This document shows positions 6,339 to 11,251 of a stretch of DNA of 64,000 nt, in pieces. The stretch comes from a virus. Lineage: Duplodnaviria; Caudoviricetes. The notes under the pieces are model-generated. The model saw only the letters and a program-made list of their open reading frames with translations. It made no database searches and was not told where the DNA came from. The position numbers and the translations under genes are program-made. The stretch covers positions 831-64,830 of the IMG/VR virus record IMGVR_UViG_3300048909_000132, one strand, 5' to 3'. The stretch's first letter is position 1. Each line of letters opens with the position of its first letter.

Positions 6339-6534
6339 CGGTCGTCCTCCTACGTTTGCTGCGTTTGCGCGGCGGCGAGGGCTGCGCAAGCTTGGCGGCA
6401 GCGGCATACCAGCCCGACCGGAACGCGCGCTCGATCATTGCCTCGTGCCGTTGGGTCAGCAGGCCGAGGCGTTGCTGATAGTCATGCCACGCCGCATTGA
6501 CCTCGGCGGTGTAGCCCGGTTGCTGCTCATTCAT
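6277..6534 (-). CDS. hypothetical protein
   Basis: ATGA overlap with the QueD-like stop. Confidence 0.6.
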   Translation of the reverse strand: MNEQQPGYTAEVNAAWHDYQQRLGLLTQRHEAMIERAFRSGWYAAAAKLAQPSPPRKRSKRRRTTDDDTAPHHQSAATQHGAPGG

Positions 6535-6830
6535 GGGCGGGCCTCGACCAGATAACCGAGCGTCGGCCTGCGCACGACCACGCGCGTCAAATGCAGAGCG
6601 GTCTGGCCCAGGAACCAGTGAGCCAACGCCTCCATCGTTGAATCGCCAACGCTGGCCTCCAGCACAGTGTGATCGACCAGCGACGCTATGTCGCGCGCCC
6701 TTCTTTCAAACACCGGTAAATCCCAGTCCACGACCGACCAGCACTCGACCAGATAGGAGTGCCCGTGCATCCGTCCATCGGCATCGCGGTGCGCCGCCTC
6801 GACGTTCACCGTCACGGCACGCTCGATCAT
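6531..6830 (-). CDS. queD: minimal QueD-like T-fold protein (6-carboxytetrahydropterin synthase family)
   Basis: EAAH...HGHSY.VE, DH..L, TME.LA.W motifs; adjacent to QueE. Confidence 0.75.
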   Translation of the reverse strand: MIERAVTVNVEAAHRDADGRMHGHSYLVECWSVVDWDLPVFERRARDIASLVDHTVLEASVGDSTMEALAHWFLGQTALHLTRVVVRRPTLGYLVEARP

Positions 6831-7444
6831 GGAATGCCCCATGTCTTGTGCGCCTGGATCGCCAGCCGCCATTCGGGGTGCGCCAAGCAGTATGCTGCGG
6901 CTGCCCGCGTGTTGGCTTTGCGGCTTCGACTGTCCATCGGTGAGAGCCAGCGATAGATAGCTGCAAAGTCGGTGAACAGTTCCGGCTCTGCACCGCGCTG
7001 CGGGTAGACGAGCTTCAGTTCGTCGGCATCCTGCAGCACCAGGTCCGCGCCTGCCTTCGGGCTGACGCACAGCCAGTCGACGTCTGCGGGCAACGGCTGA
7101 GTGCCGTTCGTCTCCACCGCGATGAAGAACCACCTACGGTGCAGTTCCACGACGAGTTGCTTGTCGACCTGTAGCAGGGGTTCGCCGCCGGTCAGCACGG
7201 TCATTCTGTGGTGCTGCCCATCAGGCCATAGCCGCTCGATCGCATCGACGAGCGTGTTCGCATCGCGATACTTGCGACCGCCAACGAACTCGGTATCGCA
7301 GAACTTGCAGACTGCCGAGGCACGATCGGCCTCGCGGCCCGACCAGAGATTGCATCCGGCGAACCGCACGAACACCGCAGTGCGACCGATCTGCGCGCCC
7401 TCGCCCTGCGCCGTCAGGAATATCTCTTTGACCGCGTAGCTCAT
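6827..7444 (-). CDS. queE: 7-carboxy-7-deazaguanine synthase QueE (CX14CX2C radical SAM type)
   Basis: VKEIF.T.QGEG...G..AVFVRFAGCNLWSGRE.DRA.AVCKFCDT, LTGGEPLLQ, ETNGT, SPK, WRL..Q.HK. Confidence 0.95.
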   Translation of the reverse strand: MSYAVKEIFLTAQGEGAQIGRTAVFVRFAGCNLWSGREADRASAVCKFCDTEFVGGRKYRDANTLVDAIERLWPDGQHHRMTVLTGGEPLLQVDKQLVVELHRRWFFIAVETNGTQPLPADVDWLCVSPKAGADLVLQDADELKLVYPQRGAEPELFTDFAAIYRWLSPMDSRSRKANTRAAAAYCLAHPEWRLAIQAHKTWGIP

Positions 7445-8133
7445 GCTACCAGCTCAAGTTGCTCGGTGCCGCGAGGTACCCATCGCATGGGGCATTGCAT
7501 CGCATCCCAGCGTGCGGCCATGCCCCCTGGCGTATTCTGTGGCCGCTTGTGGTTCTGCGCGACGTCAGTGCTGTCGACCGAGGCGAATGGCCAGCGCAAC
7601 CCGGCGCACTGCATCCCGCGCAGCATGTGGATCTGTGGTGCCCTGCCGAACGTGGTGGAAAGCTGGTCCCACACCTCGTCCATCCGCCGCTCCCACAGCT
7701 CACTGAGGACGACCGCGTATTCGGCTGTCGAGCCAATGCACACACGGCTCCAGCCGTCGTCCACCAGTCGGCATAGCCGTCCGACAGGCTCGTCCATGTG
7801 CCACACGGGGCCCGCTTGGCGCTTGCCGTGCGGCCACTCGTTCAGCAATCCATCCTGCTCCTGGCTTGGCGCGTCGATGACATCCGGAGGTACGGCCCAG
7901 GTCGTCGGACAGTGCAGCCACCGATCGCACCACCGGTAGTACGCGGTCCACTTGGCCGCCGCTCCGCGCTTCCACACCGAGAAGGCACCGTTGTCGAGCA
8001 TGACGCTCTGCCCGATCAGGTGGCAGCGACGCACGTCGTCGCATCGTGGGTGCGAGACGCAGAAGGACCGACCGGCAAGCTCATAGAGCGCTTCGACCGG
8101 CGTGATCGGCGTGCCGTGGTAGTGCAAGGTCAC
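7441..8133 (-). CDS. TGT-fold (DpdA-like) base-exchange protein
   Basis: DNGAFS, PDVI, PVWH, IGS, HMLRG and SVDST match the order of TGT/DpdA catalytic motifs; next to queE/queD. Confidence 0.65.
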   Translation of the reverse strand: MTLHYHGTPITPVEALYELAGRSFCVSHPRCDDVRRCHLIGQSVMLDNGAFSVWKRGAAAKWTAYYRWCDRWLHCPTTWAVPPDVIDAPSQEQDGLLNEWPHGKRQAGPVWHMDEPVGRLCRLVDDGWSRVCIGSTAEYAVVLSELWERRMDEVWDQLSTTFGRAPQIHMLRGMQCAGLRWPFASVDSTDVAQNHKRPQNTPGGMAARWDAMQCPMRWVPRGTEQLELVA

Positions 8134-8570
8134 GGGTCGCTGGAGACAGCTGCAATTGCAGCTGTTCGAAGTTCGATCTCGCGTTGCTGACGAAGCTCAG
8201 TCCACCACCGCACACGGCGCTGGGTCGGATGCGTTGCAGCGAGGCGCTTACGAGATGGCGTCGTCAAGCCGAGTGCCTGGGACACCCGACGCAGTCGTGC
8301 CTCGAGCTGCGACGCCGCACAGTTCGCATGCTCGCCGGATCCGCGGAGATCCGCGCGCACGCACAGGCGGATGCATTCGCATATTCCAAGCCGCTGCAGT
8401 TCGCGTGACACCGGTCGGCCAAGCACACCCACGGCGACCAGGTCGTCGCCTTCGAACATGCCGAGAGCGACAATGCCGCCCTGCGCCGGGTCGTGATGGC
8501 GATGATGCAGCGCGATGAAGCGAGCTGCCTCTTTCAACGTCACCCAGCGTGTGGTGAACCTACGCGACAT
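8130..8570 (-). CDS. XF1762-family (GNAT-like) protein, apparently internally shortened
   Basis: TLKEAARFIALHHRHH.P, VGVLGRPVSR.L, RLC and HPT..R.RW motifs. Confidence 0.7.
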   Translation of the reverse strand: MSRRFTTRWVTLKEAARFIALHHRHHDPAQGGIVALGMFEGDDLVAVGVLGRPVSRELQRLGICECIRLCVRADLRGSGEHANCAASQLEARLRRVSQALGLTTPSRKRLAATHPTQRRVRWWTELRQQREIELRTAAIAAVSSDP

Positions 8571-10155
8571 CGAGGCTCATCCAAGCCCTGATGACTTCGG
8601 CGGCGACGACCGGCGAGATCGCGTTGCCGTAGGCGCGCAACTTGGCCACGTCGCCGGAATGCCGAGTAGCCAGCGGGAGAATTCCGGATTGAGTAGGCCT
8701 CCAGCGCCCGTCGCGGCACGGGATCCAGACAAGGCCGCTCCAGGGATCTGGTGGGCCACTTGGTTCTGGAGCTGCTCGCCCTTCGCGCCGCCTCCGCGTT
8801 CCGAGTATGCGCGGTGGTTCGGCGTTCGGTAGTCCCGTTCCGCCGGCGTCGCCCACCCGGTCAGGAGCTTCGTCTGCGAGTGCAGGTTGTCCGGTGTCTT
8901 GCCGCTGGCCACGCGCTTCGCTGAGAAGCCCGTGCTCTCCGCGTCCTCGGCTTCCGGTGTCGACCACCCCGCCAGGTGCGCCTGCTGCGCCAGTTCGTAG
9001 TGCCTCTTCGTCCCAGGCGAACCCCGCGAATCCGCCTCGATCGGTGTCGCCCAACCCGTCAGTTGCACGAAGTCCTGCAGGTCGTTGGCGTGGCCTCCCA
9101 CTGCCCGCGCCAGCACCTTGTCCGGATCCGTCGTCGCTCCTCCCGCCTTCTCCTTCGACGTCGGTGTCGGCCAGCCCGCCAGGAGCGATGCATCCGTCAG
9201 GCTCAGTCCTGGGTGCGCCCTGCTGTTCGGCAGGCTCCTCGAGCCGCTGCTGTTCGCATCGCCCTCGGTCGGCGTCGGCCACCCCGACAACGACGCGGTC
9301 AGCTCCAGCCTCCCCTTGTTCTTGTCGCCGCTCTCCATCCGCGTCACCTCCGACGCCGAGACGTTCGGACTCTCGTTCGCCCTCGGTGTCGGCCACCCCG
9401 ACAACTGCGCCACCTCCCCAAGGTAGAGTGGCACCGAGTTCTGGTTGGCATTGCGCTTCCGGAACGCAGCGCACTTTGCCATCGTGTCCTCGTCGCGAAC
9501 TCGGTCCACCGCTGTCGGTGTCGGCCACCCCGACAACTGGGCGATCGTCGCGACCGTCGCGCCGCGCGCCTGCCCCCGCCACGACGTTCCGGCTTCCGCG
9601 ACCTGGTCCGCTGTGCCCTGGTTCTGATCGCTCGCTCGCGGTGTCGGCCACCCGTCTGTCGGCCACCCACCAGAGCCGCTGTCGGATGTTCGGACCACCG
9701 ACGCCCGCAACCGGGATATCCACCGTCCCGACGGCGTAGCCATGTGCCTCCAGCGCAGCCGATACAACGTCGAGCCACGCCGTGCCGTCGCTGCTTGCAA
9801 CCTGCTCGCCAGCGAGCGCGACAGGGCGGCACTCGCTGATGAGCCACTCCCACGCAGGCCAGAGGTGTCGATCATCAGCAAACCCATCGCCGCGGCCTGC
9901 CTGGGAGAAAGGCTGGCACGGGCAACTGCCGGTCCAGATCGGTCGGTCGTCGGACCATCCGGCCCATCGGAGCGCGAGGCTCCAGAGGCCCAATCCGGCA
10001 AAGAAATGACACTGCGTGTATCCGGCGAGGTCGGCTGGTCGGACGTCGAGGATGTCCCGGTCGTCGACAACCCCGTCGCAAATAAGTCCTGCTGCAATGA
10101 GGTTGCGAAGCCACTGGGCACAGAAGCGATCTTTCTCGTTGTAGTAGGCACTCAT
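8560..10155 (-). CDS. C5 cytosine DNA methyltransferase, alpha chain (motifs I-VIII and X)
   Basis: FFAGLG, GSCPCQPFS, GEQV, RQRLW, C-terminal LRAYGNAI; low-complexity middle; no motif IX in this frame. Confidence 0.9.
   Translation of the reverse strand: MSAYYNEKDRFCAQWLRNLIAAGLICDGVVDDRDILDVRPADLAGYTQCHFFAGLGLWSLALRWAGWSDDRPIWTGSCPCQPFSQAGRGDGFADDRHLWPAWEWLISECRPVALAGEQVASSDGTAWLDVVSAALEAHGYAVGTVDIPVAGVGGPNIRQRLWWVADRRVADTASERSEPGHSGPGRGSRNVVAGAGARRDGRDDRPVVGVADTDSGGPSSRRGHDGKVRCVPEAQCQPELGATLPWGGGAVVGVADTEGERESERLGVGGDADGERRQEQGEAGADRVVVGVADADRGRCEQQRLEEPAEQQGAPRTEPDGCIAPGGLADTDVEGEGGRSDDGSGQGAGAGSGRPRQRPAGLRATDGLGDTDRGGFAGFAWDEEALRTGAAGAPGGVVDTGSRGRGEHGLLSEARGQRQDTGQPALADEAPDRVGDAGGTGLPNAEPPRILGTRRRREGRAAPEPSGPPDPWSGLVWIPCRDGRWRPTQSGILPLATRHSGDVAKLRAYGNAISPVVAAEVIRAWMSLDVA
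8577..10151 (-). CDS. overlapping-frame beta chain: GW[P/A/S]TP module array plus motif IX-like LNPEFSRWLLGIP
   Basis: 524-codon open frame nested in alpha; 8 periodic modules; true start uncertain. Confidence 0.7.
   Translation of the reverse strand: MPTTTRKIASVPSGFATSLQQDLFATGLSTTGTSSTSDQPTSPDTRSVISLPDWASGASRSDGPDGPTTDRSGPAVARASLSPRQAAAMGLLMIDTSGLRGSGSSASAALSRSLASRLQAATARRGSTLYRLRWRHMATPSGRWISRLRASVVRTSDSGSGGWPTDGWPTPRASDQNQGTADQVAEAGTSWRGQARGATVATIAQLSGWPTPTAVDRVRDEDTMAKCAAFRKRNANQNSVPLYLGEVAQLSGWPTPRANESPNVSASEVTRMESGDKNKGRLELTASLSGWPTPTEGDANSSGSRSLPNSRAHPGLSLTDASLLAGWPTPTSKEKAGGATTDPDKVLARAVGGHANDLQDFVQLTGWATPIEADSRGSPGTKRHYELAQQAHLAGWSTPEAEDAESTGFSAKRVASGKTPDNLHSQTKLLTGWATPAERDYRTPNHRAYSERGGGAKGEQLQNQVAHQIPGAALSGSRAATGAGGLLNPEFSRWLLGIPATWPSCAPTATRSRRSSPPKSSGLG
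8845..9666 (-). repeat. 8 dispersed ~14-bp cores (consensus GGGTGGCCGACACC on the - strand) with unique in-frame spacers
   Basis: Cores start at + coordinates 8845, 8956, 9043, 9163, 9271, 9385, 9517 and 9640; periods 111, 87, 120, 108, 114, 132 and 123 nt; partial ninth core near 9657-9666. Confidence 0.9.
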
Positions 10156-10979
10156 GCCGCCATCGCGTGGATGATCGCGGGACGAACCCACCGTCGCTGG
10201 AACGCACGCCACTCGGGACCAGGCGCATGCTTCATCTCCGCTGGCCGCTCCGGTCGCCACAGCATCGCCATCGGCGTGAGGCCAATCGACACCATCTGAT
10301 CGAGCCGCTTCTCCGCTGCGGCGAAACTGTCCTTCGGGTGTCCGATCAGCACGTAGACGCGCAGCCGGTGAGACTCGCGCGTGAACCCTGCTGCCAGCAT
10401 TCGCGTGGCCGCGCTGCGCAGCGTTTCGAACTCGTCGCCTGGGTCATAGGCCCAGAACATCGTCGGGCGTGGTTTGAGATCGGCCAGCAATCCGACCTGA
10501 TAATCCTCCAGCGACAAGGCCTCGAGGCCTCCGGTGAATTCCACACGCCGCGCCTGCTGGCGCAGCATGGCGAACACGGCCTCGACGTGCGGTCGCGGGC
10601 ATGCCAGCAGATTGTCGTCGAGGATGTTCCAACCGGGATGAATCGGCAGCACGTTCGCCGTCGGCCACTTGCGCCACACGCCGCAGAACCAGCAACGACG
10701 CGGGCAGCCGCGCGACGTGATCGTGTAGCCGGGTTTCACATATCGGCCAGGAACGAACTCAAGGCTGTCATCGCCATAGGCCACGCCACCGAGCTTGACC
10801 GGCGCCACCCAGCGCCACTCCTCGGCAAGCCGTTCAGCGACAGGCTTGTCCCAGGTGAACGACACCGAGATATGCACCTCGTCTGCCTCGGCAAACATCG
10901 AAGGCCCGCCGACGTAGGCGAGCGCATCGTCAGGCGTCGCCCTGGTGCGTCGAGGGAACACGCGGATGATGCGTGACAT
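10152..10979 (-). CDS. radical SAM protein with a degenerate cobalamin-binding-like N-terminus
   Basis: TSRGCPRRCWFC (CX3CX2C), ILDDNLL, GGLEA, YVLIG; N-terminal VHISVSFTW and LGG. Confidence 0.85.
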   Translation of the reverse strand: MSRIIRVFPRRTRATPDDALAYVGGPSMFAEADEVHISVSFTWDKPVAERLAEEWRWVAPVKLGGVAYGDDSLEFVPGRYVKPGYTITSRGCPRRCWFCGVWRKWPTANVLPIHPGWNILDDNLLACPRPHVEAVFAMLRQQARRVEFTGGLEALSLEDYQVGLLADLKPRPTMFWAYDPGDEFETLRSAATRMLAAGFTRESHRLRVYVLIGHPKDSFAAAEKRLDQMVSIGLTPMAMLWRPERPAEMKHAPGPEWRAFQRRWVRPAIIHAMAA

Positions 10980-11251
10980 CAGGGATCGTCCCGCCACATG
11001 ACTTCGACGATGCCCTCGACGCGCTCCGTCTCGACCTTATCACCGACGACTTTGAACCTGGGGATCTGCCTGCTGCCGGTGTGGCTGGTGCCATCCTGCA
11101 ACACGACGTAGCGCACCACGTAGCCCGCCTCGGTGTCGTACTCGACGACGAAACGCTGCGGCACGGCGTCGAGGAATATCCGCAGATCCACCGCGACGCG
11201 TGCATCGGTCACGCCGAGCTTCGCGTAGGTTGGCGGCGGCGGTCGGGTCAC
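10979..11251 (-). CDS. hypothetical protein
   Basis: GTG start overlapping the upstream stop; coupled to the radical SAM start. Confidence 0.55.
   Translation of the reverse strand: MTRPPPPTYAKLGVTDARVAVDLRIFLDAVPQRFVVEYDTEAGYVVRYVVLQDGTSHTGSRQIPRFKVVGDKVETERVEGIVEVMWRDDP

Follow-up and report, generated by a model that had tools for sequence, protein, structure and literature searches.

The stretch of DNA examined here, positions 831 to 64,830 of the IMG/VR virus record IMGVR_UViG_3300048909_000132 (Duplodnaviria; Caudoviricetes), carries two genes, A (alpha) and B (beta), that are read from the same bases of one strand in different frames, and that probably act together as one C5 cytosine methyltransferase whose recognition part, too, would be carried by the nested chain B. 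The stretch, hereafter the window, is 64,000 nucleotides (nt) long, i.e., nearly all of the 64,830-base record (rated complete), and its G+C content (GC) is 67%. Some 1.57 kb of it is dual-coding, with A bearing the catalytic motifs and B, in the +1 frame relative to A, an array of eight modules and a segment that resembles motif IX (Table 1). As a rule, members of a very large phage and prophage family have this layout, which is not special to the window.

Two open frames and the selection on them

A list of open reading frames (ORFs) with their translations places both A and B on the minus strand, which agrees with a preliminary description made from the letters alone, in which B had been reported as a same-strand frame open for 524 codons within A. 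At 67% GC a long second ORF means little by itself, and the openness of each frame was judged against 1000 synonymous-codon shuffles per frame. In the window, none of the shuffles that preserved A yielded 524 open codons in the +1 frame (mean 264), and A never stayed open when B was preserved (mean 138). The same test was applied to eight loci, i.e., the window and seven homologous phage loci, including some of 47–49% GC: in all eight the openness of the +1 frame lay beyond the A shuffles (P 0 to 0.012), and that of the A frame inside B exceeded the B shuffles (P ≤ 0.001). The +2 frame was mostly as expected (P 0.14–1.0 in the seven phage loci), the window being the exception with 175 codons open (P 0.018).

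Both frames were also open in all 83 of the IMG/VR and phage loci that had been found via B, with a third frame that never exceeded 45 codons. A second set was assembled by searching bacterial genomes with the N-terminal domain of A only, such that B played no part in the choice. In each of the 66 scorable loci of this set, from Alpha-, Beta-, Gamma- and Deltaproteobacteria, Acidobacteria and others, the +1 frame had 200 or more open codons (median 311, as against 38 for the +2 frame). The same nested pair is open in the phages epsilon15 and Haboob and in Burkholderia phage vB_E264, as well as in phage K1H, and it is found at low GC, in the Paenibacillus phage Shelly (47%) and in Vequintaviruses (47–49%). 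The preliminary description had regarded a frame B that is never translated and not conserved in homologues as a ground for giving up its proposal; as regards conservation, B proved to be open in every phage and bacterial locus of the two sets. A frameshifted pseudogene or a sequencing error was considered and ruled out, since both frames are intact in all of the relatives. The double open frame is more than chance.

Nucleotide diversity was then compared between the codon positions of 76 aligned loci. At the N-terminus of A, and again at motif X, it peaks at the third position of A (0.45–0.67), which shows ordinary selection on A alone. Between PCQ and motif VIII, the third-position diversity of A falls from 0.5–0.67 to 0.14–0.43, with 0.14 reached at WLDLVQADLE, a stretch that is read as GSTLYKLTWK in B, and in this zone both frames are constrained. 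In the middle of the gene the amino acids of A are diverse (0.67–0.85) and the most variable position is the first of A, i.e., the third of B, a pattern that shows selection on B alone. Double constraint sets in again at the IX-like motif of B, where third-position diversity is low in both frames and, for A, drops to 0.08 over EPGTFPLAHG. Taken together, both frames are under purifying selection, and the locus is a clean natural case of two proteins evolving on one DNA, in which zones of single and double constraint adjoin.

The catalytic chain and the nested chain

All of the motifs that the preliminary description had named in A were found, i.e., FAGLG (9988–10002), PCQPFS (9904–9921), EQV (9799–9807), RQR (9676–9684) and LRAYGNAI (8617–8640), and, as it had stated, A of the window has no motif IX; an IX-like segment is present only in B. 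Motifs I, IV, VI, VIII and X thus stand on one chain, together with the large-domain fold of a C5 methyltransferase, and the target-recognition domain and motif IX that such an enzyme has between VIII and X are absent from A. Among the 66 bacterial loci, an IX-like pattern lies within A in one. The Pfam family PF00145 matches A with 33.2 bits (cut-off 22) over motifs IV–VIII only, phrog_363 (E = 8.8e-64) matches the two ends of A only, and a profile of the A family aligns to residues 71–174 of M.HhaI (E = 9e-16). An AlphaFold2 (AF2) model of A was built with 59 homologues, and a Foldseek search with it retrieved M.HaeIII and M.HhaI (E = 2e-7 to 5e-6, with 1dct at 2e-7 and the M.HhaI entries at 2e-6, 168 columns at 3.2 Å). 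Columns that are invariant in the 59 homologues are P79, C80, Q81, P82, E117, Q118, R158 and R160 in the N-terminal part, and W472, W477, C480, D482, P487, L495, G510 and N511 near the C-terminus, where the model has strands at 477–479 and 485–487 and helices at 502–530 with a predicted local distance difference test score (pLDDT) of 81–88. The two ends are joined by a linker of about 290 residues, which occupies the site of the recognition domain and motif IX in single-chain enzymes. On the model, residues 1–170 and 470–531 fold like M.HhaI and M.HaeIII, making A the large domain of a C5 methyltransferase without the small domain.

The N-terminus of A has a peculiarity of its own. In residues 1–56 (10006–10155, minus strand) a motif II-like YYNE.D..A.WLRN and a motif III-like VDDRDI.DV precede the FxGxG of motif I, an order that recurs in the relatives of A in proteobacterial phages, and motif I is then followed by PCQ after about 23 residues. 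In the enzymes of Paenibacillus phage Shelly and mycobacteriophage Papez the order is the usual one, I, II, III, IV. The arrangement in A resembles what a local permutation among the first beta-alpha units would give; a BLASTP comparison of the first 55 residues of A with the Papez enzyme, which bears on this question of order, gave no signal.

B begins its conserved part with an N-terminal segment that overlaps motifs IV to VIII of A, in which L110, L114, G126, S127 and W134 are invariant. This is followed by the modules, each headed by GW(P/A/S)TP, and then by the IX-like segment. The preliminary description had placed a motif IX-like sequence at the C-terminus of B just upstream of motif X, and this is where it lies: LLNPEFSRWLLGIPATW is encoded at 8646–8696, next to LRAYGNAI in the frame of A. 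Within it, residues 487–502 (LNPEFSRWLLGIPATW) are encoded by the same bases as the conserved hairpin that precedes motif X in A. L487, P489, W494, L495, G497, P499 and W502 are nearly invariant, and the pattern LNPxFSRWLxGxPxxW agrees with motif IX in both consensus and position. The stop codon of B comes 17 nt ahead of that of A, with 22 codons of B following the IX-like motif. B is matched by two PHROG families with the label DNA methyltransferase, phrog_1008 (1e-27) and phrog_31772 (4e-31). More than 3500 homologues of B are present in the databases, and the family, which has no Pfam entry, comprises 21,670 clusters at 50% identity (E ≤ 1e-3); among the ESM Atlas clusters, those closest to B in language-model features carry the name “hypothetical protein” throughout and are 80–93% viral.

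The eight modules of B were compared by direct scoring against the modules of the window, single-linkage clustering having been dropped after nearly all of the modules chained into one cluster. They are mutually dissimilar (0.08–0.22 of the self score), and each has counterparts that occupy other positions in further B proteins; module 8 of the window comes last in 48 of 50 cases. Among the 168 B proteins with modules that could be delimited (of 194 distinct ones), the number is usually three or four; two proteins have eight, including that of the window, and two have more, which makes the window one of the largest versions of the layout. The coding sequence of the GWPTP anchor also forms a dispersed direct repeat, with copies at 9384–9407 and 9516–9539 that are identical over 24 bases and weaker copies at 8844, 8955, 9042, 9162 and 9270. 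Because the anchor is repeated at the DNA level, module exchange by recombination would be possible, and the repeats could be the points at which modules are gained, lost or swapped. A more far-reaching idea, which is tentative and may well prove wrong, is that B is a modular multi-specificity subunit, in which each GWPTP module would be an independent recognition unit serving one catalytic core, so that up to eight sequences would be methylated, modules would be swapped between phages by recombination at the 20–24-nt anchor, and dual coding would keep the array tied to the catalytic gene. If true, this would be a new and widespread phage route for escaping many restriction systems at once.

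Table 1. Positions of the A/B pair, of its parts and of the neighbouring genes in the window
Feature	Position	Strand	Description
Gene A (alpha)	8560–10155	minus	predicted C5 cytosine methyltransferase catalytic chain, 531 amino acids (aa); ATG at 10155 to TAG at 8560
Gene B (beta)	8577–10151	minus	nested ORF, +1 relative to A, 524 codons; GTG at 10151 is the first possible start; stop TGA at 8577
A residues 1–170	9646–10155	minus	folded Rossmann-type core in the model, pLDDT ~90; holds FAGLG, PCQPFS, EQV and RQR
A residues 173–459	8779–9639	minus	linker; pLDDT <50, no secondary structure; sequence not conserved, frame kept open
A residues 472–513	8617–8742	minus	hairpin (W..C.DG.WRP...PLA), then motif X; conserved
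B residues 77–160	9672–9923	minus	conserved N-terminal segment (ASLSPRQA...GSTLYRLRW...RASVVRTS)
B residues 168–486	8694–9650	minus	eight GW(P/A/S)TP-headed modules of 29–54 aa each
B residues 487–502	8646–8693	minus	motif IX-like segment
Start junction ATGAGTG	10149–10155	minus	ATG of A overlaps TGA of the upstream gene; GTG of B directly after that TGA, in the frame of the upstream gene
Alternative B start, ATG	9885–9887	minus	B residue 89; product would be 436 aa; best anti-Shine-Dalgarno pairing among the candidates, -6.5 kcal/mol
Upstream gene	10152–10997	minus	281 aa; weak radical-SAM-like match, PF04055, E = 8.7e-4, below cut-off
Downstream gene	8130–8570	minus	146 aa; weak Mom-family match, PF25680, E = 1.2e-3, below cut-off; start (ATG) in an 11-nt overlap with the end of A
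230-aa gene	7441–8133	minus	no Pfam match
Radical-SAM gene	6827–7444	minus	PF04055, above Pfam cut-off
QueD-like gene	6531–7133	minus	PF01242, weak

A proposed enzyme of two chains, and other explanations

In the proposed two-chain enzyme, A would supply the large catalytic domain, i.e., S-adenosylmethionine binding, the catalytic cysteine of PCQ, motifs VI and VIII and the helix of motif X, and its disordered linker would merely join the two halves, being a by-product of reading the DNA of B in the other frame. B would supply what A is without: an N-terminal segment that would dock on A, eight modules that would read the DNA, and motif IX. Both chains would be translated and bind each other, and B would set the target sequence. 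Translation of the two would probably be started by ribosomes that have finished the upstream gene at ATGAGTG, with an internal ATG as a possible alternative for B. If B sets the target, then predicting the methylation specificity of such phages, and hence the restriction systems that they evade, would require the nested frame, and the module array would offer a natural means of altering specificity.

Several observations weigh against this proposal. The start of B in the window is ambiguous: an ATG about 92 codons ahead of GSTLY, mostly preceded by a Shine-Dalgarno (SD)-like stretch, is kept in two thirds of the relatives (48 of 73), and the window has ACG at this place. Pfam searches with B, with its C-terminus and with its homologues matched no family, PF00145 included, and a profile of B run against solved structures retrieved no methyltransferase and nothing else of relevance; a profile of the motif IX region, from an alignment that included three rows in the wrong frame, likewise found no methyltransferase among solved structures. 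The assignment of motif IX rests on the consensus pattern, the position and one weak match obtained with hhalign, in which the IX-like segment aligned to AEFYEWLMGLPRGW of the single-chain enzyme of mycobacteriophage Papez with E = 7.7e-4 and a probability of only 25%. In Papez this sequence stands directly ahead of motif X, in the same frame, and the gene is without a +1 ORF. The profile alignment to motif IX that the preliminary description had suggested as a check gave this one weak match in Papez and none to PF00145 or to a solved methyltransferase. Finally, when modelled alone B folds poorly (mean pLDDT 44 in AF2), with a helix at 105–124, a hairpin at 130–152 (pLDDT 68–80) and the helix of the IX-like motif as the only confident parts, which would fit a chain that folds on its partner and proves nothing.

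B could also be a real, translated protein with another function, such as a regulator of A or an anti-restriction or other DNA-binding protein. In favour of this, it has no detectable match to a methyltransferase profile or solved structure, it is mostly disordered in the solo model, and in the pneumococcal phage MM1 a methyltransferase gene complete by itself encloses a +1 ORF with no detectable relation to B, so that nesting alone is no proof of a subunit. Such a role would leave A without motif IX and a folded small domain, however, and it would not account for an IX-like motif that stands in B exactly where single-chain relatives have theirs, just ahead of motif X, nor for the presence of B beside A in every locus sampled; it is held to be unlikely. 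The order of the motifs, with I–VIII in A, the modules and IX in B and X again in A, is that of a single-chain enzyme, which would also be obtained if one polypeptide were made by two programmed frameshifts, from A to B after motif VIII and back to A after motif IX. Two database proteins, P0056 and P0123, do switch from the frame of B to that of A close to their end (...GRLRAYGNAI...), and they are either natural frameshift variants that fuse the N-terminus of B to motif X or assembly errors. Frameshifting would, however, need neither the 290-codon middle of A nor the ~100 codons of B ahead of the modules to be open, and both are open in all loci, beyond all shuffles; the N-terminal segment of B is under constraint of its own, and both frames are open end to end, whereas at a programmed frameshift the zero frame ends shortly beyond the shift site and the alternative frame opens only there. 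Moreover, motif IX of B and the pre-X hairpin of A lie on the same bases, and W502 of B is separated from G510 of A by only 6 codons, as against 17 residues in Papez, such that a shift cannot deliver both the motif and the hairpin. A frameshifted single chain, for which no search for slippery sites was made, is accordingly judged highly improbable.

That only A is a gene, and that the +1 frame is kept open by composition, codon usage or a constraint on the DNA or RNA, draws some support from the high GC of the window, at which long spurious ORFs are common, and from its rather long +2 frame. Against this, the +1 frame is open at 47–49% GC as well, the middle of the gene varies most at the third position of B while the amino acids of A are not conserved there, and amino-acid motifs of B persist from Paenibacillus phages to those of proteobacteria. 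This explanation is given next to no credence, and two chains that form one methyltransferase remain the preferred reading of the locus.

Neighbouring genes, annotation and known systems

The pair lies within a tightly packed operon on the minus strand (Table 1). The longest ORF for A extends over 8560–10260, and the ATG at 10155 inside it (MSAYYNE...) is most likely the true start, giving 531 aa. The calculated pairing to the anti-SD sequence is -2.1 kcal/mol for the start of A and -4.8 for the GTG of B, neither being a strong SD match; since there is no good SD at either start, both may rely on ribosomes that terminate at the upstream TGA. The junction suggests that the upstream 281-aa gene is translationally coupled to A and B. 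It shares the frame of B, with one TGA between them, and in two database proteins, P0041 (798 aa) and P0105 (634 aa), a PD-(D/E)XK/DUF2800 protein is joined to a B-like part, so that B may in some cases be fused to a gene upstream of it. The genes downstream (6531–8570) make it likely, judging by their family matches, that the methyltransferase locus is part of a larger DNA-modification cassette.

Extensive overlaps between genes of the same strand are regarded as rare among bacteria and phages, and annotation pipelines do not permit them. The preliminary description had expected gene callers to report one of the two frames, and this is what is found: the records of epsilon15 and Haboob list A only, those of Burkholderia phages list B only, as a “putative metabolic enzyme”, and few, i.e., K1H and the Paenibacillus phages, list both. 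In Burkholderia phage vB_E264 and its relatives (1495–2679 of the vB_E264 locus) it is the catalytic A that is omitted, so that a cytosine methyltransferase seems absent on paper. Because the layout is the rule in a family of ~21,700 clusters without a Pfam entry, many phage and prophage records would miss half of an enzyme, or label that half “hypothetical” or “metabolic enzyme”.

Tandem arrays of recognition modules are known from the multispecific C5 methyltransferases of the Bacillus phages SPR, phi3T and rho11s, studied in the Trautner laboratory, in which short, dissimilar modules stand between motifs VIII and IX and their content varies between phages. These enzymes are single chains without a GWPTP anchor, whereas here the tandem dissimilar modules are found on a nested chain.

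Overlapping methyltransferase genes have been noticed before. McDonnell et al. (2017) noted two C5 methyltransferase ORFs that show a “total overlap” in Streptococcus thermophilus phages of the 5093 group, the S. pneumoniae phage MM1 and Tn5252, to which no function was assigned (PMC5601072). In MM1, ORF13 (gene at 7480–8637 of the MM1 locus) gives a single chain that is complete, motifs IX and X sharing one frame, and ORF14 (141 aa, +1, over motifs IV–VIII of ORF13) is a different nested ORF; it was compared with B as a candidate member of the family and rejected, there being no detectable similarity between the two, and the streptococcal cases of the literature cannot be filed in the A/B family. 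Nested +1 ORFs that cover motifs IV–VIII in genes for C5 methyltransferases may have more than one origin. True members of the A/B family are present in GenBank, as ORF28 of K1H, a “putative Mte8-like protein” inside ORF29, and as gp56 of Shelly, the “g55 internal gene”. In the papers on these phages the nested ORF is not explained as a subunit, and a literature search, itself incomplete, found no paper that describes the A/B family or its split of functions.

Two C5 methyltransferases that are naturally made of two chains offer the closest comparisons. In M.AquI (CYCGRG) the variable region and motif IX are on a second chain (PMC3404938), which also has motif X, i.e., the enzyme is cut lengthwise, whereas here motif X is on the catalytic chain and the genes overlap almost wholly. 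In M.EcoHK31I (E. coli HK31, YGGCCR; Lee, Kam and Shaw 1995), the alpha gene contains, in a second frame, the coding sequence of the motif IX-bearing beta chain, both chains are needed, and alpha retains the target-recognition domain (PMC2836561, PMC3404938). By its published description, M.EcoHK31I shares with the present pair a nested same-strand chain in another frame and an outer chain that bears motifs I–VIII plus X, and in every locus sampled B lies wholly inside the gene of A, on the same strand and in another frame, as beta does there. The preliminary description had taken the window for a much larger version of that design, and this has stood up as regards the nested chain with its IX-like motif, the ~1.57 kb of dual-coding DNA, the conservation of both frames and the selection that acts on them, as well as the lack of a folded recognition domain and of motif IX in A. 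It has to be amended in two respects, as the layout is a trait of the whole family and recognition modules, too, would be on the nested chain: the beta chain of M.EcoHK31I supplies motif IX only, whereas here alpha has a disordered linker and the module array is on B, a chain that nearly matches alpha in length (524 as against 531 codons) and that combines a conserved N-terminal segment with eight modules.

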